Virus record (IMG/VR): IMGVR_UViG_3300039329_000118
Length of the DNA: 8,369 bases
Strand: one strand, 5' to 3'
DNA from: a virus
Taxonomy: Duplodnaviria > Heunggongvirae > Uroviricota > Caudoviricetes
The notes under the pieces are model-generated. The model saw nothing but the letters and a program-made list of their open reading frames with translations. It did no database searches and was not told the DNA's origin. A program made the position numbers and the translations under genes. Positions 1,087 through 8,369 of this stretch are shown one piece after another; the first letter of the stretch is position 1; the number at the start of each line of letters is the position of its first letter.

Positions 1087-1169
1087 ACTTAACCCCTGAC
1101 CACTGCCTGGTAACTCGAAGTATTGCCCTGCATTCTGTGGGGCGGGGTGGGTTGGTATGAAAAGAAGGA

Positions 1170-1206
1170 TACCCATAGGTATTTAAAAAGTAAATACCCA
1201 TGGGTA
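1170..1206. promoter_or_regulatory. OL-like operator pair (TACC-N4-GGTA palindromes) just 3' of the repressor gene
   Basis: TACCCATAGGTA (1170..1181) and the perfect 12-bp palindrome TACCCATGGGTA (1195..1206), 25 bp centre to centre, embedded in A/T-rich DNA. Same half-site architecture as the sites between the repressor and cro-like genes. Placement matches lambdoid OL/PL; the promoter hexamers were not resolved. Confidence 0.5.
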
Positions 1207-1247
1207 AATTTTGCGGTGTCTTAACTGGTGACTAGTTGTTTGGTGAG

Positions 1248-1667
1248 CTATGATGCGTTTTGTGCTTTCTTTTTACGGATTTCTTCGTAGATCATATTGT
1301 AATACTGTTTTTTCTCTTCAAGAGTTTTTAATAATTTATCCGCTTCACTTTCTGGCAGTTCGTCTAAGAGATCTAAAAAAATACGTTGTCGTGGCGTTAG
1401 AACCCTTGTTTCATAACTGGAGGCTGTGTTCGTTGATGATGAAACGATACCATCCATCCATCCCCGGGGTAACCCAAAGGACTCTTCGATAATCTCCACC
1501 ATATCATCAGCGATCCGTTTTTTTCCCTTTTTCCCCTCTGGGTACAACATTCTTGATACATAAGAAGGCTCGCGCCCGATCTTTCTGGCCACGTTAACCG
1601 CTTTACCATCGCATTTCTCATCACGAATTTTGATGAGTTGCTGTCGTCTAAATTCATATTTGTCCAT
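1248..1667 (-). CDS. prophage repressor, CI-like HTH protein without a recognisable S24 autoprotease domain
   Basis: 139-aa ORF divergent from a cro-like gene. N-terminal HTH-like segment (KAVNVARKIGREPSYVSRML). Too short for a LexA-like Ser/Lys peptidase domain and no such motif seen. Flanked by palindromic operators. No SD before the ATG at 1667, so it may be translated from a leaderless or short-leader transcript, as lambda cI is from PRM. Confidence 0.7.
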   Translation of the reverse strand: MDKYEFRRQQLIKIRDEKCDGKAVNVARKIGREPSYVSRMLYPEGKKGKKRIADDMVEIIEESFGLPRGWMDGIVSSSTNTASSYETRVLTPRQRIFLDLLDELPESEADKLLKTLEEKKQYYNMIYEEIRKKKAQNAS

Positions 1668-1687
1668 AGGTAAATAATAGATGCGAT

Positions 1688-1743
1688 TACCGCAAGGTAA
1701 ACAACCTGTGGGTATTGGCTTTTGTTTACCTGCGGGTATTCTT
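1688..1743. promoter_or_regulatory. OR-like tripartite operator with divergent repressor and cro promoters
   Basis: Three TACC-N4-GGTA-type sites: TACCGCAAGGTA (1688..1699), AACCTGTGGGTA (1703..1714, degenerate), TACCTGCGGGTA (1727..1738). Candidate rightward promoter -35 TTGGCT (1715..1720) and -10 TATTCT (1738..1743) overlapping the third site. AAGGAG SD at 1757..1762 precedes the cro-like ATG at 1768. Confidence 0.5.
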
Positions 1744-1767
1744 TGCTGTGTTTACTAAGGAGTAGCT

Positions 1768-2049
1768 ATGGAAGAATTAAGAATATTTCTCAATTCTCTT
1801 TCGTCAGATGAACAGCGTATGTTTGCATGCGAGTGTGGTACCAGCATCGGTTATCTAAGAAAGGCATTGAGTAAAGGTCAAGTGTTAGGGGCATCGTTAT
1901 GTGTCCTTATTGAGCGAGCCAGTAATGGTGAAGTTACACGTCAGCAACTAAGGCCTTTTGATTGGATGAATATTTGGCCCGAGCTGGAAGATACCAAAAC
2001 GTTAACACAACCACTTTCTAGGAGCTTGATTCATGAAAATCAAGCATGA
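1768..2049 (+). CDS. Cro-like HTH regulator, YdaS family
   Basis: 93-aa ORF with strong SD (AAGGAG, 5-nt spacer), divergent from the repressor. The segment ERASNGEVTRQQLRPFDW resembles the YdaS motif of Rac prophage as I recall it (family assignment from memory, not searched). Confidence 0.65.
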   Translation: MEELRIFLNSLSSDEQRMFACECGTSIGYLRKALSKGQVLGASLCVLIERASNGEVTRQQLRPFDWMNIWPELEDTKTLTQPLSRSLIHENQA

Positions 2050-2458
2050 ACACATCCGCATGGCGATGAATGCCTGGGCGCGTCCTGATGGCGAAAAAGT
2101 TCCAGCAGCTGGAATAACCCAGGCTTATTTTGAGTTGGGTATGACGTTCCCGGAACTGTATGACGACAGCCATCCGGAAGCCCTGGCTCGCAATACCCAG
2201 AAAATTTTCCGCTGGGTAGAGAAAGACACCCCTGATGCAGTTGAAAAAATTCAGGCGTTGTTACCAGCGATCGAAAAGGCAATGCCACCTTTGCTGGTGG
2301 CCAGAATGCGCAGCCACAGTTCAGCTTATTTTCGGGAGCTGGTGGAGACGCGGGAGCGACTGGTGAGAGACGCTGATGATTTTGTCGCAGTGGCAATCGC
2401 CGGTTTCAATCAGATGAACCGTGGTGGCCCGGCAGGAAATGCTGTGGCAGTACATTGA
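2033..2458 (+). CDS. YdaT-like protein (CII-analogous regulator, formerly annotated as a toxin)
   Basis: 141-aa ORF overlapping the cro-like gene by 17 nt. The N-terminus MKIKHEHI matches my recollection of Rac YdaT. Position (cro, then this gene, then replication gene) matches the Rac ydaS-ydaT-ydaU order. Confidence 0.55.
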   Translation: MKIKHEHIRMAMNAWARPDGEKVPAAGITQAYFELGMTFPELYDDSHPEALARNTQKIFRWVEKDTPDAVEKIQALLPAIEKAMPPLLVARMRSHSSAYFRELVETRERLVRDADDFVAVAIAGFNQMNRGGPAGNAVAVH

Positions 2459-2529
2459 CTGACAATAGCCATATCGAATCGCTTCCGGCAACTCGTGAGT
2501 AAAAAGATTCGGTATCAGAAGAGGTGAGT

Positions 2530-3600
2530 ATGGCTAACGCCTGGCTCAGATTATGGCATGACATGCCAAATGACCCTAAGTGGCGAACAATTGCCAGGGT
2601 GTCAGGGCAGCCAATTGCAACAGTGATGGCAGTGTATATCCACCTCCTGGTGAGTGCGTCACGAAATGTCACGCGAGGTCACATTGATGTCACGACAGAA
2701 GATTTGGCAAGTGCGCTCGACGTGACAGAAGAGGTAATTGATTCAATTTTGCAGACGATGCAGGGGCGGGTACTTGATGGTGATTTAATCACTGGATGGG
2801 AAAAACGCCAGGTGCTTAAAGAGGACAACGGCAATATTTCGCAAACCGCAAAATCTCCTGCAGAGCGCAAGAGGGCGCAGCGAGAGAGGGAAAGAAAGCG
2901 GGAACAAAATGGCGATTGTCACGGCGCGTCACGAAATGTCACGCACATGTCACGACGAGTCACGACAGATAAAGATACAGATAAAGATACAGATCAAGAA
3001 GATCAAAACACTATGGTCCATGGCGTAAAAAACGCCACGAACCAGGCAGGGGATGTTCAGACCGTCAATCCTGGTCAGCCAGCAGGCACGACACCGGAAG
3101 CCGATTCAGCGTATGCGCTGAAAGCCGATTCGGGCGCTGTGCAGCAGGTGATGACCCCAAGGCCGGAGCAATCACACCAACTGCAGCAGCCTGAAGCCGA
3201 TTCCGCCATTCAGCGGAAAGCCGATCGGGTAGTCCCGGAAAACACCGGGCTGTCTGTGGGACGAGTGGATTATCCGGATGCGTTCGAACAGGTCTGGCGG
3301 GAGTACCCGTTGCGTGCCGGAGCAAACCCGAAGAAATCCGCTTTCAGTGCCTGGAAGGCCAGATTACGCGAGGGGGTGCCACCAGAGGCCATGCTGGATG
3401 GCGTGAGGCGTTACGCAAGATACTTGGCGGCTACCGGGAAAACGGGAACGGAATTTGTTCAGCGAGCGACGACGTTTTTTGGACCGGACCGGAATTTTGA
3501 GAACCCCTGGTTGCTCCCGGTAAGCGGCACGAACAACCAGCGTTGTGTGAATCATATTTCTGAACCGGATAACGAAATTCCGCCGGGCTTCAGGGGGTAA
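2530..3600 (+). CDS. phage replication initiation protein (O-like / replisome organiser) with internal origin repeats
   Basis: ORF-track 2524..3600 (GTG start). I prefer the ATG at 2530 with AGAGG 6 nt upstream. Sits in the replication-module position after cro/YdaT-like genes. Contains two iteron clusters and an AT-rich tandem repeat within the coding sequence, giving repeated peptide motifs (SRNVT...VTT twice, DKDTDKDTD). The C-terminal ~120 aa is a distinct region of unknown fold. Confidence 0.65.
   Translation: MANAWLRLWHDMPNDPKWRTIARVSGQPIATVMAVYIHLLVSASRNVTRGHIDVTTEDLASALDVTEEVIDSILQTMQGRVLDGDLITGWEKRQVLKEDNGNISQTAKSPAERKRAQRERERKREQNGDCHGASRNVTHMSRRVTTDKDTDKDTDQEDQNTMVHGVKNATNQAGDVQTVNPGQPAGTTPEADSAYALKADSGAVQQVMTPRPEQSHQLQQPEADSAIQRKADRVVPENTGLSVGRVDYPDAFEQVWREYPLRAGANPKKSAFSAWKARLREGVPPEAMLDGVRRYARYLAATGKTGTEFVQRATTFFGPDRNFENPWLLPVSGTNNQRCVNHISEPDNEIPPGFRG
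2656..2694. repeat. iteron cluster A: four GTCAC(G/A) repeats at 10-11 bp phasing
   Basis: GTCACG at 2658, 2668, 2689 and GTCACA at 2678 (start positions). The 19-mer GCGTCACGAAATGTCACGC (2656..2674) recurs exactly at 2926..2944. Confidence 0.55.
2918..3010. repeat. iteron cluster B (five GTCACG repeats) plus adjacent AT-rich tandem repeat: candidate origin of replication
   Basis: GTCACG starting at 2918, 2928, 2938, 2949, 2959 (10-11 bp phasing), followed by two perfect tandem copies of GATAAAGATACA (2968..2979, 2980..2991) and a degenerate third. This mirrors the iterons-plus-AT-rich layout of lambda ori inside gene O. Confidence 0.55.
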
Positions 3601-3640
3601 GTGTTAATTTCTGGTCATGAGGTAATTTTCAGGAGGGCTT

Positions 3641-4063
3641 GTGGCAAAAGTTTTTACACAAGAAGAGCGGGAAAAAATTAAAGGACAGGTTGTTGAACTC
3701 GTACGCCAGAGTGGGCGTGAGACGTTACGGCAACTGGAAGTCAAGACAGGTGCGACAAGATATCTGATGAGCGTTCTCGCAAGAGAGCTGGTTGCCAGCG
3801 GCGATGTATACAACTCTGGTTACGGGTTATTCCCGTCTGAACAGGCGCGTAAGGACTGGCAAAATGCCCGTAAAAAGCTCTCAAGGGCAAAGCTGAAGAA
3901 ACCATCTGCGGTTGATCCGGACCTTATCTGGCCATTACCTGACGGAGAAATACGTCGCTACGACAGGCGTCAGAACATAATCTGTCGCGAGTGCCGGAAG
4001 AGTGAAGTTATGCAGCGCATATTGTCGTTTTATCAGGGTGATGTTCGGTATTTATTGAAGTGA
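3641..4063 (+). CDS. hypothetical protein downstream of the replication gene
   Basis: 140-aa ORF with GTG start and AGGAGG SD (3631..3636), 40 nt after the replication gene stop. Contains one CxxC (CRECRK) near the C-terminus. Far too small to be a DnaC/P-like helicase loader. Function unknown. Confidence 0.5.
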   Translation: MAKVFTQEEREKIKGQVVELVRQSGRETLRQLEVKTGATRYLMSVLARELVASGDVYNSGYGLFPSEQARKDWQNARKKLSRAKLKKPSAVDPDLIWPLPDGEIRRYDRRQNIICRECRKSEVMQRILSFYQGDVRYLLK

Positions 4064-4130
4064 CGAGATTAAAGTGCATTAGTTCAGATGCAAATTGACA
4101 TTTTGTGGCACAGGGTAGAGCTAGCGTGGT

Positions 4131-4156
4131 TGTCCGCTTTGTGCCAACAGCGGACA
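4131..4156. terminator. GC-rich hairpin between convergent genes (possible bidirectional terminator or insulator)
   Basis: Stem GTCCGCT (4132..4138) pairs with AGCGGAC (4149..4155) around a 10-nt loop. Lies between the stop of 3641..4063 (+) and the stop of 4210..5019 (-). No flanking T-run on either strand, so not a canonical intrinsic terminator. Confidence 0.3.
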
Positions 4157-4209
4157 TTATAGATGGTATATGTAGAAAGTGAACATGCGTAGATTGTATG
4201 ATTTAGCCG

Positions 4210-5019
4210 TCACTTAATTATTGGATAACTCACACAAGTATGACCGTTGCTTATCGCATACATTTGGTTTCCCTTAAGATTTACAAATGGAAATGTCGTA
4301 TACTCATAATTTATAGAGGTCATATTAAATGTAAGGAATTTATCCTCAAGTTCTAATTTTGTAGAGTGGGCAGGGTATGTTCCTTCATTTTTCATTGTGA
4401 TAATAAAACCGATAGGAAAAAAATGTAAAGCACAAATAAATGCCACATGTCCTTCGTTCATAAATGCTACACTTTGAGCGGATATGTGCATTCTGTGTGG
4501 GTAAAACCAGTAGTAAATATCATGAGTTTCCTCAAAACTTGAATTTTTACCCAAAACATAATCCTTTAAAGGTGTATAGAAGGGGCTATCTACGGGTTCT
4601 TTTTTACAATCTTCAACTGAAGTTGCTGATAGCACGTGCCCAATCATAGCCTTAGTGAAAGATATGCTATCAAAAGGTATTCTAATGAATGGATATACAT
4701 TCATACCATTCATATATCGACTTAACTGTTCTTTAAAGGACTTTGTTACATTTTCAATTGCAACATCGAGCCCACCTAATACCTTATTGTTACAGTGGCT
4801 GCAAATGGTTCTGAAATAAGAGCCATTTTTAGCATTTAATGGTTTAACTGGTTCCTGAATACCAAAAAATTCGCTAACTGTTTTCTGCAAAACAGGGCCT
4901 AAGGTTATGGCGCACTTTGGAGGAACATGATCTTTTGTGAGCAAGCCATATTTCCCACAAATATTGCAATAACCTTCAGTAATGCCATTGTGCTTCCATC
5001 GTTCACTAATTTTCGTCAT
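4210..5019 (-). CDS. HNH (His-Me finger) nuclease-motif protein with an uncharacterised C-terminal domain
   Basis: 269-aa ORF in markedly AT-rich DNA, opposite in orientation to the flanking phage genes. N-terminal motif C-N-I-C-G-(x7)-D-H-V-P-P-K ... N ... C-S-H-C-N-N-K fits the HNH pattern (CxxC, [D/E]H, N, CxxC). SD-like GAGGGA about 6 nt upstream of the ATG on the minus strand. About 180 C-terminal residues unrecognised. Confidence 0.75.
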   Translation of the reverse strand: MTKISERWKHNGITEGYCNICGKYGLLTKDHVPPKCAITLGPVLQKTVSEFFGIQEPVKPLNAKNGSYFRTICSHCNNKVLGGLDVAIENVTKSFKEQLSRYMNGMNVYPFIRIPFDSISFTKAMIGHVLSATSVEDCKKEPVDSPFYTPLKDYVLGKNSSFEETHDIYYWFYPHRMHISAQSVAFMNEGHVAFICALHFFPIGFIITMKNEGTYPAHSTKLELEDKFLTFNMTSINYEYTTFPFVNLKGNQMYAISNGHTCVSYPIIK

Positions 5020-5139
5020 TTTTATTCCCTCAGTAGCATAAGCTATCTATACGTTTTTTAATCCTATCAAAGATACAACTTAACGTCAGGAAAATGATAG
5101 TGTTTATCTAAGTAATACAATTAACTTCAACGCGTGACA

Positions 5140-5163
5140 GTCTGCTTTTCGCTCAAAGCGGAC
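5140..5163. other. GC-rich hairpin upstream of the HNH gene, related to the hairpin at 4132..4155
   Basis: GTCTGCTTTTCGCTCAAAGCGGAC; its reverse complement matches 4132..4155 at 20 of 24 positions, and 18 of 24 in direct orientation because both are near-palindromic. Together they bracket the HNH gene. Confidence 0.35.
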
Positions 5164-5643
5164 TAGAAGGTTAGCTTGCGTCGGACTTGGCGTATTTAAA
5201 GAAGTGCTGGTGGTGACTGGTTGTTGTGTTCCATTTCTACAGAACAAAATCACAGAAACTATACCCAATAGTTGTATCTCATCAATGATGAGACAGCCTC
5301 ATATTTATCAGAACTGGTGTACGTCCAATACAGGAGGTTGTCGTGCTGGTTCTCAAATGTGCGCTGGCTATTGCTGCTGTAATGGCAATTTATTGCCTTG
5401 CTGTTGTTCTTATGGATCGCCTTTCTGATTGATTTTATATTGGCGAGGTGACGTGAGTTAAGTAGAATTGCTGCGGGTGCTTGAGGCTATCTGTCTCAGG
5501 CATGAACACCAAAGGCAGATAGAGAAAAGCCCCAGTTAACATTACGCGTCCTGCAAGACGCTTAACATTAATCTGAGGCTCAATCTATGAACGGCAAATC
5601 TAGGTTAGCCTCTTACGTGCCGAAAGGCAAGGAGAAGCAGGCT

Positions 5644-5799
5644 ATGAAGCAGCAAAAGGCGATGTTAATCGCCCTGATCGTCATCTGTTTAACCGTCATT
5701 GTGACGGCACTGGTAACGAGGAAAGACCTCTGCGAGGTACGAATCCGAACCGGCCAGACGGAGGTCGCTGTCTTCACAGCTTACGAACCTGAGGAGTAA
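5644..5799 (+). CDS. hokD: Hok/Gef family type I toxin (HokD/RelF-like small membrane peptide)
   Basis: Translation MKQQKAMLIALIVICLTVIVTALVTRKDLCEVRIRTGQTEVAVFTAYEPEE (51 aa) has the Hok/Gef layout: hydrophobic transmembrane segment then conserved C-terminal tail. It matches my recollection of E. coli HokD/RelF closely; the symbol is from memory. SD AAGGAG at 5629..5634. The ORF track's 70-aa frame (from ATG 5587) is an in-frame upstream extension. Confidence 0.85.
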   Translation: MKQQKAMLIALIVICLTVIVTALVTRKDLCEVRIRTGQTEVAVFTAYEPEE

Positions 5800-5868
5800 G
5801 AGACCTGGCGGGGGAGAAATCCCTCGCCACCTCTGATGAGTCAGGCATCCTCAATGCACCCGCGCTTA

Positions 5869-5888
5869 ACCCGCTTCGGCGGGTTTTT
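5869..5888 (+). terminator. rho-independent terminator of the hok transcript
   Basis: Stem ACCCGC (5869..5874), UUCG tetraloop (5875..5878), stem GCGGGT (5879..5884), followed by T-run to 5888. About 70 nt after the hok stop. Confidence 0.75.
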
Positions 5889-5903
5889 CTAGCATCTATC
5901 TGG

Positions 5904-5963
5904 TTGACAAAGTCTATGTTAAATGGAAATATGGTTGACACCAAAACAACAAGGATATTACGG
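5904..5963 (+). promoter_or_regulatory. candidate promoter region for the two-gene operon
   Basis: Two TTGACA hexamers (5904..5909 and 5935..5940) in the 77-bp gap between the hok terminator and the ATG at 5966. Possible -10 elements are AAATAT (5927..5932) for the first, or TATTAC (5956..5961) for the second, which would give a near-leaderless mRNA. Weak; start site not resolvable by eye. Confidence 0.3.
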
Positions 5964-5965
5964 TC

Positions 5966-6580
5966 ATGCAGAATTTATCTCAACAGTTGTTAGAAGCATA
6001 TGACAAGGAGTGCCGCAAAGAGCTTTCGATCGCGTTAGCACAGGCTTATCTTCATTCGCATATGAAGGCAAAAGAGTTTGGTTCTTTTTGGGCTCAAGCA
6101 CAGTCATATTTGCGCTGGTTTTATGCCGATGCATTGCTTGAGAATGCGGCTAAGCGTGTGGGGCTGGATTTTGAAGTCGGTAGCAATGCTGCTAAAAATT
6201 GTAAACACATTGCGATTCACTCGAACAACTGGAAAATGACGGCACATCATTTATCGGGTAATGCGCCACTTCCTAAGCAGGCATTGTATAGAGCTGTTTA
6301 CGCTAATCAAAATTATGAATTGAATTTTGGGGATGAAAATGCCGACTCCCTGGATGGGAGAGCGTCTGGTGGACATGTTTATATGTTACATGATGGCAGT
6401 AATCAGCACTTGTCCAAACTGAATTTAACTGTTCCTTCTTCGGATAATTACGGGATTCTTTATACTGAGTCTTTACCAATTATGACGATGGTAGAAGTTG
6501 AAGCAGAAAATGTGGATTCTGAGATTGAAGATAAAATCAAGATTCTTACCGAACAAATAATTAAATCACAGCAATCATGA
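5966..6580 (+). CDS. hypothetical protein, first gene of the two-gene operon (candidate effector/toxin partner of the HTH-peptidase)
   Basis: 204-aa ORF, AT-rich. Stop overlaps the next gene's start (ATGA at 6577..6580), implying translational coupling. No motif I can recognise; acidic C-terminal tail. Confidence 0.7.
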   Translation: MQNLSQQLLEAYDKECRKELSIALAQAYLHSHMKAKEFGSFWAQAQSYLRWFYADALLENAAKRVGLDFEVGSNAAKNCKHIAIHSNNWKMTAHHLSGNAPLPKQALYRAVYANQNYELNFGDENADSLDGRASGGHVYMLHDGSNQHLSKLNLTVPSSDNYGILYTESLPIMTMVEVEAENVDSEIEDKIKILTEQIIKSQQS

Positions 6581-7722
6581 GCATGAATATCGCACAAACA
6601 CCATTTACTGATAAATCGTTTAATCCTCGTCGCCTTGAGGAGGCAAGAGAGGCAAAAGGGTTGACGATGGCTGAACTTGCCAGAGTGCTCAATATTTCAA
6701 GACAAGCTATTTCGTCATTTGAGAAGGGGTTGAAGTCTCCCTCTGCTGATACACTTTCTGCAATAGCCAAGGTGTTAGGATTTCCAGAACGATTTTTCTT
6801 AGCCTCCAGTGCTTCTCCATCTCTGGAGGGGGCGATTCATTTTAGAAGTCGTTCAACTGCGACCAAAAAGGCTCGAGTTACAGGGAAAACACGTGGGCGT
6901 TGGGCGGCATTAATATTGGATGAATGTCTAAAATATGCTCAATTACCAGATGTGGTTCTGCCTGAATTCGATATTATTGATTTTGAGGTTCTGTCTCTAT
7001 CTGATATTGAGGATATGTCCACCCAATTAAGGCGTTTTTGGGGGTTAGGTGATGGTCCAATACTCAATTTAACTAGACTTGTTGAAAATAAAGGAATCGT
7101 GGTTTCTCATTTACCTTCTGGTGAGAAAGTTGATGCCTTTTCGTTCTGGCATAATGGGCGGCCTTTAATTATGTTAGATAGCTCGAAGACGGCTGTTCGC
7201 ATGCGATTTAGTCTTGCTCATGAACTTGGCCATTTAATTATGCATAGGGCAGTGGAGGATGACTACCTGAATGATAAAGAATTATTCGACCTAGTGGAGT
7301 TGCAGGCCGATTATTTTGCCTCCAGCTTTTTAATGCCAGCCACGACTTTCGGGCGTGAATTTTATAGTCCAAATTTATCAGCGTTAGAACGATTAAAACT
7401 ACGTTGGATTACATCTATCGGTAGTATTGCCATGAGGAGTCATAGCCTTAAGTTAATTAGCGATAATCAGAAAAGCTATATATTTAAGCAATTAGCGCCA
7501 TTCCATCGTAGGGAGCCGTTAGATGATGCAATCCCAAAAGAAGAGCCTGAGTTACTTAATAAGTTACTTTTACTTCTTGATAAGCATTCAATCATAAAGG
7601 TAACTGAGTTAACTGATATCTTTGCTCTTCCTTTAAATGAGTTATCTGCAATTACACGATTTAAAGAATCAGATATGATTCATTCTGACAATGTTATTTC
7701 ATTTACCATAAAACAAAAATAA
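6577..7722 (+). CDS. XRE-family HTH fused to an ImmA/IrrE-type (COG2856 / M78-like) zinc metallopeptidase domain
   Basis: 381-aa ORF. N-terminal Cro/C1-type HTH (LTMAELARVLNISRQAISSFEKG). Central HEXXH zinc-binding motif (SLAHELGHLIMH) with the downstream acidic/aromatic segment (ELQADYFASSFLMP) typical of ImmA/IrrE peptidases. Coupled to the upstream gene and followed by a terminator. Confidence 0.85.
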   Translation: MSMNIAQTPFTDKSFNPRRLEEAREAKGLTMAELARVLNISRQAISSFEKGLKSPSADTLSAIAKVLGFPERFFLASSASPSLEGAIHFRSRSTATKKARVTGKTRGRWAALILDECLKYAQLPDVVLPEFDIIDFEVLSLSDIEDMSTQLRRFWGLGDGPILNLTRLVENKGIVVSHLPSGEKVDAFSFWHNGRPLIMLDSSKTAVRMRFSLAHELGHLIMHRAVEDDYLNDKELFDLVELQADYFASSFLMPATTFGREFYSPNLSALERLKLRWITSIGSIAMRSHSLKLISDNQKSYIFKQLAPFHRREPLDDAIPKEEPELLNKLLLLLDKHSIIKVTELTDIFALPLNELSAITRFKESDMIHSDNVISFTIKQK

Positions 7723-7733
7723 TTCTCATTCAT

Positions 7734-7758
7734 ACCCGCCTCGGCGGGTTTTTGTTTT
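7734..7758 (+). terminator. rho-independent terminator of the two-gene operon
   Basis: Stem ACCCGC (7734..7739), loop CUCG (7740..7743), stem GCGGGT (7744..7749), then TTTTTGTTTT. Twelve nt after the stop at 7722. Nearly identical in sequence to the hok terminator. Confidence 0.7.
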
Positions 7759-7828
7759 ACGTATTCTGGTTTACAATCCACAGGCCAGCCTGAACAACTG
7801 GCACCTGCTGCGCCAGCAGAGACAACCG

Positions 7829-8107
7829 ATGGCGCACGATACCAAATTATACAATTCTGATGATTCTGCCGTCTTTGCCAGCAGGCGCGGACGGTGTTTT
7901 CACGCATTCAAATCTGACTGGTACCAGCATCCCCCATGCACTGAAGAACAGGCCGAATGGCTCATTCAGTGTTACCGCAGGCGCGGATGCGAGGTTAAAA
8001 AAGCCCTTAGCCTCGACTACCGTCACTGGATAATCTCCGTCAGGCTCCCTTACTCCGAACGGCCAGCGCGTCCGTCCCGCACATTCCAGCAACGGATCTG
8101 GAGGTAA
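7829..8107 (+). CDS. hypothetical ORF in higher-GC DNA (weak call)
   Basis: 92-aa ORF-track frame ending with TAA at 8105..8107. Plus-strand frame preferred over the overlapping minus-strand 147-aa frame, whose P/G/R/S/T-rich composition looks like an antisense shadow. No SD or motif verified. Confidence 0.25.
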   Translation: MAHDTKLYNSDDSAVFASRRGRCFHAFKSDWYQHPPCTEEQAEWLIQCYRRRGCEVKKALSLDYRHWIISVRLPYSERPARPSRTFQQRIWR

Positions 8108-8108
8108 T

Positions 8109-8369
8109 GTGCGGGTATTACTTCGACCTGTTCTGGTACCGGAACTCGGTCTGGTTATCGTTAAGCCAGGCCGTGAATCAATGTCAGCATTCCATAACGG
8201 CAGAATACTGGTGGAGCCGGAACCAAAAAGCATGCGTAATCTGCCGTCCGGGGTCGTTCCTGCCGCTCGCCAGCCGCTGGTGGAAGACAAAACATTGCTG
8301 CCGTTTTTCAGTAACGCACGGGTGATTCGTGCTGCTGGTGGTGCTGGTGCATTGTCTGACTGGCTGTTG
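8109..8369 (+). CDS. 5' part of a hypothetical protein running off the window end (partial)
   Basis: Frame open from 8034 to the window end. First start codon is GTG at 8109, preceded by GGAGG (8100..8104). Translation begins VRVLLRPVLVPELGLVIVKPG... Not in the ORF track because it has no stop in the window. Identity unknown. Confidence 0.3.
   Translation, partial: MRVLLRPVLVPELGLVIVKPGRESMSAFHNGRILVEPEPKSMRNLPSGVVPAARQPLVEDKTLLPFFSNARVIRAAGGAGALSDWLL

Follow-up and report, generated by a model that had tools for sequence, protein, structure and literature searches.

We read the DNA that follows the replication genes in IMG/VR virus record IMGVR_UViG_3300039329_000118 (8,369 nt, the whole of which we call the window), with a probability of about three in four, as a nin-equivalent region in which a hok/sok toxin-antitoxin locus sits between two slots for morons that are low in guanine plus cytosine (GC), mostly anti-phage, and reassorted by recombination. 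We assign the window to a chromosomal lambdoid prophage of Escherichia coli, of the Rac/Qin type, and from aligned sequences we interpret the hotspot as a conserved hok/sok anchor with an independent slot on either side. Slot A is on the left, between DUF977 and hok; slot B is on the right, between the hok terminator and orf92/ydfU. Here the first holds a gene for a 269-aa HNH-like protein and the second a RosmerTA operon. The segments are listed below (loci compared with the window carry L numbers).

3641..4063, plus strand: DUF977 (YdaW-like) gene, left anchor of the hotspot (Pfam DUF977, E 1.2e-29); conserved in L001-L005 and L008
4064..4160, no strand: conserved backbone spacer with the left hairpin GTCCGCTTTgtgccaacAGCGGAC (4133-4156) at its end; slot A starts at ~4156-4161; GC 0.454
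4161..5139, minus strand: slot A cargo, one gene (4210-5019) encoding the 269-aa protein; GC 0.346
5140..5474, no strand: conserved pre-hok region, beginning with the right hairpin; common to L001, L003, L004, L008, and partly L005, with differing slot A cargo; GC 0.430
5475..5889, plus strand: hok/sok/mok type I toxin-antitoxin locus (Rfam RF01794, Pfam HOK_GEF); GC 0.525
5869-5888, plus strand: terminator T1, of hok (6-7 bp stem, tetraloop, T run)
5890..7733, plus strand: slot B cargo, the RosmerTA moron, absent from L001 and L004; GC 0.396
7734-7753, plus strand: terminator T2, a second hok-type copy at the right junction of slot B (6-7 bp stem, tetraloop, T run)
7764-7776, plus strand: -35 region TTCTGGTTTACAA of the orf92/ydfU unit, after T2
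7829..8369, plus strand: right anchor, orf92 and the start of DUF968/YdfU (PHROG 1212, E 4e-35); annotated neighbours in L001-L005

The window was compared with 5426 complete E. coli genomes (megablast) and with fetched relatives (pairwise blastn). Other cargo is present at the same junctions in prophages whose repressor, replication, and DUF977 genes are identical or closely related to those here. L001 and L004 match the window at 1087-5887 and then at 7734-8369; hok and orf92 are adjacent there, and the window has 1865 extra bases between them, the position of a moron. L002, from APEC (avian pathogenic E. coli), is 99.8% identical over 5410-8369, with QueH replacing 4142-5409, and L003 (LF82, phage Tritos) matches up to 4161 and again from 5140, with an FRG-domain gene between. 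Slot A is filled by two small genes in L005, by AbiH plus a 463-aa gene in L008, and by relBE in K-12. The two cassettes of the window are distributed independently: the 269-aa cassette occurs in 141/5426 genomes, including plasmids (29 places) and a P2-like prophage, and the RosmerTA cassette in 41/5426, always on the chromosome and with an identity of at least 99%. They stand side by side in none of the 5426 genomes, none of which carries the window's combination of cargo or holds a single place matching at least 80% of the window. A first-pass annotation of this DNA had suggested a variable hotspot and proposed such an alignment; the content is indeed replaced at the same junctions instead of being conserved. 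Its three transcription units in mixed orientation (the 269-aa gene on the minus strand, hok and the two-gene operon on the plus strand) also hold, and its separate acquisition of cassettes survives for the two low-GC cassettes but not for hok/sok, which is constant within this phage group and forms the anchor between the slots instead of being variable cargo.

Hok-type sequence is present in ~5000/5426 genomes. Slot B is empty, with a direct hok-to-orf92 junction, in at least 2686/5426, and a hok-to-rem junction is found in 2792 of 5426; slot B is thus only seldom filled. The nin-equivalent position assigned in the first-pass annotation agrees with the order of genes in annotated relatives, which runs from a cI-like repressor, a cro/YdaS-like regulator, YdaT, a replisome organiser, and DUF977 through a variable stretch with hokD to the 92-aa gene (orf92), DUF968/YdfU, RusA, and the Q antiterminator; annotated loci also carry an exonuclease gene upstream.

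Base composition sets the cargos apart from what surrounds them. GC is 0.508 in the left backbone (1768-4063), 0.541 in the right backbone (7753-8369), and 0.403 over 4064-7760, the interval for which a sharp drop had been described. Segment GC and GC3 (GC at third codon positions) show the discontinuity at both edges, but the interval consists of two low-GC blocks split by hok/sok at backbone GC, and its first 97 bases (4064-4160) are conserved backbone, not cargo. Both cargos have the deviating composition of morons: their GC is 0.346 and 0.396, against 0.51-0.54, and their GC3 0.30-0.37, against 0.49-0.67 (269-aa gene, 0.30; slot B genes, 0.37 and 0.32; hok, 0.67; flanking genes, 0.49-0.60).

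The pattern of single-nucleotide polymorphisms (SNPs) places a crossover between the cassettes. The left part of the window is 99.1% identical to L001, which has the 269-aa cassette and an empty slot B, and the right part is 99.8% identical to L002; between ~5312 and ~5375 the pattern switches from the L001 type to that of the RosmerTA-bearing L002 and L003. From this switch we infer that the window is a recombinant, with a crossover inside the conserved pre-hok/hok anchor. We propose that each slot holds a self-contained low-GC moron, absent or replaced in related phages and mostly anti-phage, and that cargo would be reassorted by homologous recombination in the DUF977, pre-hok/hok, and orf92/ydfU anchors. 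New cargo would enter at short hairpin junctions, formed by a terminator and -35 box at slot B and by paired, related 24-nt hairpins at slot A. First insertion may use the 20-45 bp of repeat homology, a length that Red/RecET-type recombinases could use; lambda Red reportedly supports relaxed recombination.

At slot B the junctions can be placed to the base. T1 and T2 are identical at 19/20 positions, and the single hok terminator of L001 and L004 aligns with its 19 bases to both window copies, so that the 1865-bp RosmerTA unit is an insertion relative to these loci. The slot B indel has its ends within the duplicated terminator (19-20 nt). The imperfect direct repeat continues past this hairpin as far as TCTGGTT[G/T]ACAA, which is the -35 region of the following unit, and measures ~45 bp in all. 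Among 42 hok loci (11 E. coli loci and 31 hok-linked viral contigs), slot B cargos of at least 840 bp, of five distinct kinds, all end in a second CCCGC[T/C]TCGGCGGGTTTT with no more than two mismatches. In a control scan, the exact 20-mer AACCCGCTTCGGCGGGTTTT occurred on at least 120 viral contigs, and 90/122 occurrences among the matches listed adjoin unrelated genes. Since this 20-mer stands next to unrelated genes from unrelated phages, identity alone does not show shared origin, and the reading that identical terminators prove common descent is weakened accordingly. The first-pass hint of a shared origin for the two near-identical terminators is therefore kept only in part: they coincide exactly with the two ends of the slot B indel, which supports a role in recombination on sequence grounds, but their identity by itself is weak evidence.

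Slot A has a wider repertoire. Homology to loci with other slot A cargo stops at 4141-4161, and in other genomes and viral contigs the slot contains QueH, FRG/PDC-S15, AbiH with the 463-aa protein, a CBASS cyclase with a transmembrane effector, a three-gene set containing Hp1, a 345-aa protein, an alpha/beta hydrolase, NUDIX+HAD, AIPR, or DUF7167. Across both slots the cargo includes CBASS, AbiH, PDC-S15, RosmerTA (two types), Doc, RelBE, and AIPR, as in a prophage defence hotspot. Cargos of six sizes are flanked by the left hairpin and by the right hairpin GTCTGCTTTtcgctcaaAGCGGAC (5140-5163), two 24-nt elements of the same geometry that are identical at 18/24 positions. The left hairpin accompanies the 269-aa cassette into a plasmid (homology over 4123-5163) and into a P2-like prophage (homology over 4132-5105), where its stem has compensatory changes. 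The minus-strand gene had been credited with its own hairpin or terminator; the hairpin at 4133-4156 exists and folds (z -2.0, minus strand), but it lacks a U run and is not a canonical terminator. A conserved minus-strand pre-hok promoter driving all slot A cargo was also considered and rejected, because cargo orientations are mixed.

The slot A gene of the window belongs to a family with 93 relatives in our homologue search, the named ones in Gammaproteobacteria, with the annotation "metal-binding protein" or the mistaken one "chaperonin". Positions that are invariant or nearly so are C18, C21, D30-H31-V32-P33-P34, C73, C76-N77, D85, and G127-H128; the N-terminal part, with its CxxC..DH..CxxCN motif, resembles a His-Me/HNH zinc finger, and a large C-terminal beta-rich domain is conserved across Gammaproteobacteria. 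No Pfam or NCBIfam model calls the protein at threshold, and HNH_5 matches it at E 0.29 and the best of 31 relatives at E 0.0045, all below the gathering score. The earlier label "HNH" finds backing in the motif and in these subthreshold matches but not in any curated model at threshold, and we consider it plausible at superfamily level. The family profile had no match among PDB sequences at E ≤ 10, Foldseek found none in PDB at E ≤ 0.001, these PDB searches gave no solved relative of the C-terminal domain, and PADLOC gave no match to the protein.

The relatives lie in varied surroundings. The gene is found at 4046-4855 in L010 and L011, with relatives also in L132, L134, and L136. It lies between the tail-fibre assembly and tail sheath genes (a variable position) in the P2-like prophage and adjoins an integrase on a 110-kb plasmid. 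In Serratia a relative stands at the edge of a P2-like prophage remnant, by tail genes; in Vibrio one lies where an inovirus prophage ends, adjoining DUF2726; and in Plesiomonas one shares an island with HEPN_AbiU2, SduA_C (Shedu-type), and IS110. The cassette is at least 99% identical between lambdoid prophages and plasmids and 94.7% identical in the P2-like prophage. Such locations would suit defence or inter-element competition better than homing. The gene moves among lambdoid, P2-like, and filamentous prophages and plasmids, and most likely it encodes a single-gene nuclease serving one of these ends.

The features of slot B are as follows.

5903-5908, plus strand: -35-like TTGACA of the slot B cargo
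5966-6580, plus strand: rmrT, 204 aa (PADLOC RmrT, E 7.5e-10)
6577-7722, plus strand: rmrA, 381 aa, Xre-type helix-turn-helix (HTH) and M78/ImmA-IrrE Zn-peptidase (PADLOC RmrA, E 5.5e-102)

We identify this operon, from its domains and gene order, as RosmerTA, a recognised defence system. RmrA carries both an HTH domain (Pfam HTH_3, E 2.4e-16) and a Zn-peptidase domain (Peptidase_M78, E 9.7e-19, with HELGH at residues 215-219), and the adjacent, co-oriented rmrT comes first and overlaps rmrA by ATGA (4 nt); its RmrT match is weak, RmrT families being heterogeneous. The first-pass annotation had an HTH-peptidase two-gene operon here; the plus-strand operon is upheld, but a single protein contains both the HTH and the peptidase domain, and the gene ahead of it encodes a putative toxin. 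The unit has a predicted terminator of its own (7734-7753), and TTGACA is present at 5903-5908, where a consensus scan gave no full promoter. As published, RosmerTA pairs a Zn-peptidase antitoxin with a toxin of unknown function; deletion of rmrA was unobtainable, and defence was shown (bioRxiv 10.1101/2022.05.11.491447). By extension from this published work, RmrA presumably keeps RmrT inactive until a phage cue sets the toxin free and abortive infection follows. The RmrT of the window, from a small family (78 clusters at 50% identity), is predicted to be a small soluble protein with a restriction-endonuclease-like (PD-(D/E)xK-like) fold, unlike the phage-borne RmrT of Gordonia phage Kita, which depolarises membranes (Ernits et al. 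2023, PMC10440598). The HTH and Zn-peptidase RmrA, the toxin gene that comes first and overlaps, and the hidden Markov model (HMM) matches to both proteins are otherwise as in described RosmerTA (Millman et al. 2022; PMC10440598).

Slot B occurs in other filled states. A second RosmerTA type has an RmrA 32% identical to that of the window and a barely alignable RmrT, which matches another RmrT model at 4.6e-25; further states are a small-ORF/Doc (Phd/Doc) unit (ORF, open reading frame) and a split HTH and Zn-peptidase pair. Modules of the HTH/Zn-peptidase kind recur in the slot (L086, cargo of ~1.35 kb; L007, 4012-5746), and the split pair consists of a 119-aa HTH protein and a 158-aa HEXXH peptidase, ImmR/ImmA- or CapH/CapP-like. 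Both RosmerTA types have the 5′ joint ...TCTGGTTGACAA in common despite the ~32% identity of their RmrA proteins.

Several other explanations of the interval were weighed. Acquisition of all of 4064-7760 as one foreign island in a single event would account for the fall of GC at both edges. It is contradicted by the backbone GC of the central hok/sok locus, by the two cassettes being separate in other genomes and never together, and by the SNP crossover between them, and we rejected it as having a negligible chance of being right. A dedicated site-specific system that recognises hairpins, like integron attC or the single-strand hairpins of IS200/IS605-type elements, could be invoked for the hairpins at both ends of both slots, but there is no integrase or HUH transposase in or beside the interval; the window has no integrase, its hairpins lack attC-type R/L boxes, and the slot B hairpin is an ordinary terminator, widespread elsewhere. 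We consider such a system highly improbable. A transposase target-site duplication or integron-like mechanism was likewise rejected, since there is no recombinase gene and the length and shape of the repeat are wrong.

More weight attaches to the possibility that the terminator and hairpin repeats are incidental, convergent transcription signals, and that illegitimate recombination at random points was followed by selection for intact units. C(UUCG)G hairpins are thermodynamically favoured, and the control scan described above, with the 20-mer mostly beside unrelated genes, speaks for this possibility. We nevertheless think it somewhat unlikely, for the slot B duplication reaches past the hairpin to the -35 box, the same 18-mer (no more than two mismatches) ends 5/5 unrelated slot B cargos, and the slot A hairpin is carried with its cassette into a plasmid and a P2-like phage. 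The 269-aa gene might instead be a free-standing HNH homing endonuclease; the slot A cassette would then owe its spread to cleavage of alleles that lack it and not to any benefit for the host. The HNH-like motif, the tight boundaries of a single-gene cassette of ~1 kb, and the high identity between lambdoid prophages, plasmids, and the P2-like prophage would all fit. Homing does not explain the spread through unrelated flanks (lambdoid slot A, P2-like prophage, inovirus, plasmids, and the Plesiomonas island), however, and the large C-terminal domain kept across Gammaproteobacteria, the many non-endonuclease cargos of slot A, and the subthreshold HNH assignment itself also count against it; we judge it distinctly improbable. 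Unlikely too, though less so, is a bolder proposal in two parts, namely that the hairpin joints (terminator and -35 box, or paired 24-nt hairpins) are conserved cassette-exchange sockets at which phage recombinases swap defence modules in lambdoid phages, and that the 269-aa CxxC-DHVPP-CxxCN protein founds a new family of single-gene anti-phage nucleases common to lambdoid, P2-like, and filamentous prophages and to plasmids.

The two-slot hotspot reading has points against it as well. The sample of 42 loci is small, and its viral contigs were picked by an exact terminator match, so that the count for the first terminator copy is biased. The 20-mer terminator is generic in phages, so that convergence could account for part of its recurrence at the ends of cassettes. 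The two slot A hairpins agree at only 18/24 positions, and a 37-nt imperfect inverted repeat around the slot A cargo (4119-4155 / 5140-5176; 76% complementary) is no better than other, presumably chance, pairs in the same repeat scan. Many slot A cargos look metabolic (QueH, hydrolases) and are not recognised defence genes. The RmrT HMM match is weak (E 7.5e-10), and a canonical D...(D/E)xK triad is not among the near-invariant residues of this RmrT family, which makes nuclease activity uncertain.

The anchor between the slots contains the following features.

5440-5468: hok promoter-like site (promoter scan)
5475-5649: Rfam sok model match (RF01794, 110 bits against a gathering score of 59, full model length)
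~5525-5595, minus strand: Sok antisense RNA, by homology to sokW of 933W
5587-5799, plus strand: mok, in frame with hok, 70 aa
5644-5799, plus strand: hok (Pfam HOK_GEF, E 3e-23)

The Hok/Gef reading frame with its overlapping mok, the conserved sok region, and a fold-back element in which 5′ GGGTGC pairs with 3′ GCACCC (5857-5862) identify the locus as hok/sok. Like hok/sok of plasmid R1 and hokW/sokW of 933W, it comprises Hok, an in-frame mok, a sok region, 5′/3′ fold-back, and a terminator; unlike them it lies, by our reading, as a conserved recombination anchor between two variable slots. Phage 933W and other Shiga toxin (Stx) phages carry block 5455-5871 in another context, so that hok/sok is a separate module on a longer time scale only. 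The IMG/VR contig L074 has two copies of hok/sok ~2 kb apart (hok starts, 9292 and 11311), perhaps arranged in tandem around a cargo.

The moron concept of lambdoid phages goes back to Hendrix and Juhala, and the kind of feature described here is well known: the classical moron and the prophage defence hotspot both fit the interval. Like lambdoid morons, the slot B unit appears autonomous (promoter-like site, two genes, predicted terminator), stands between genes that are adjacent in relatives, and differs in composition, and slot A cargo behaves in the same way; unlike classical morons, the cargos here occupy two adjoining slots around a conserved type I toxin-antitoxin locus, with short repeated hairpins as joints. 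P2/P4 prophage hotspots hold changing anti-phage systems at a fixed position, with a Zn-peptidase-antitoxin system among those cited, and recombination at cos ends was proposed for them (2022, PMC9122126). Our hotspot is similar in its fixed position in a temperate phage and in its changing repertoire (AbiH, CBASS, toxin-antitoxin systems, AIPR, HAD/NUDIX). It differs in being lambdoid and in lying between the replication genes and Q; it is not next to cos, and the cos-end idea is therefore inapplicable. In K-12, the Qin region relBE-hokD(relF)-rem is the same hotspot, with relBE upstream of hokD and rem after the same terminator; there relBE replaces the upstream hok/sok control region (homology begins at window position 5630), whereas the window has a complete hok/sok/mok. 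In the literature searched we found no description of this two-slot site, including its hokD/DUF968/ydfU/DUF977/ydaW context, and a search by RefSeq protein accessions returned none of the hotspot.

The analysis thus defines a concrete two-slot defence and moron hotspot in very common E. coli prophages of the Rac/Qin type, of which K-12 relBE-hokD-rem is one state. Base-level junctions allow mining for new anti-phage genes through "guilt by position", with the 269-aa HNH-like family, the 345-aa protein, the 463-aa AbiH partner, and the three-gene set as candidates, and permit tests of whether short terminator/promoter repeats guide cassette exchange. A restriction-endonuclease-like fold is predicted for one RosmerTA toxin family. 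Four leads are more novel than the hotspot itself: the hairpin "sockets", the family of the 269-aa protein, the predicted RmrT fold, and a conserved 29-aa hydrophobic reading frame upstream of hok.

That reading frame and the genes of the right anchor complete the inventory.

5343-5432, plus strand: unannotated 29-aa hydrophobic ORF (VLVLKCALAIAAVMAIYCLAVVLMDRLSD), GTG start 4 nt after an AGGAGG Shine-Dalgarno sequence, just upstream of the hok promoter
7829-8107, plus strand: orf92, the 92-aa gene directly after hok in loci with an empty slot B
8109-8369, plus strand: DUF968/YdfU gene, GTG start at 8109, running off the window end

Across 10 loci, the 29-aa ORF shows 13 distinct substitutions (8 synonymous, 5 non-synonymous but conservative), with no indels and no stops; it may encode a small membrane protein or a peptide resembling type I toxins. 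A systematic survey of His-Me finger (HNH) nucleases reportedly includes the DUF968/YdfU family, and if the 269-aa protein is HNH-like, the region would hold two such genes. A run of 31 Ns at 1056-1086 lies between the repressor gene (cI-like) and the DUF1391-side genes; L001 and L002 have only 16 bases there (ACGCCTCGGGCTGGCT), and the run seems to reflect masking or a wrong length and not biology.

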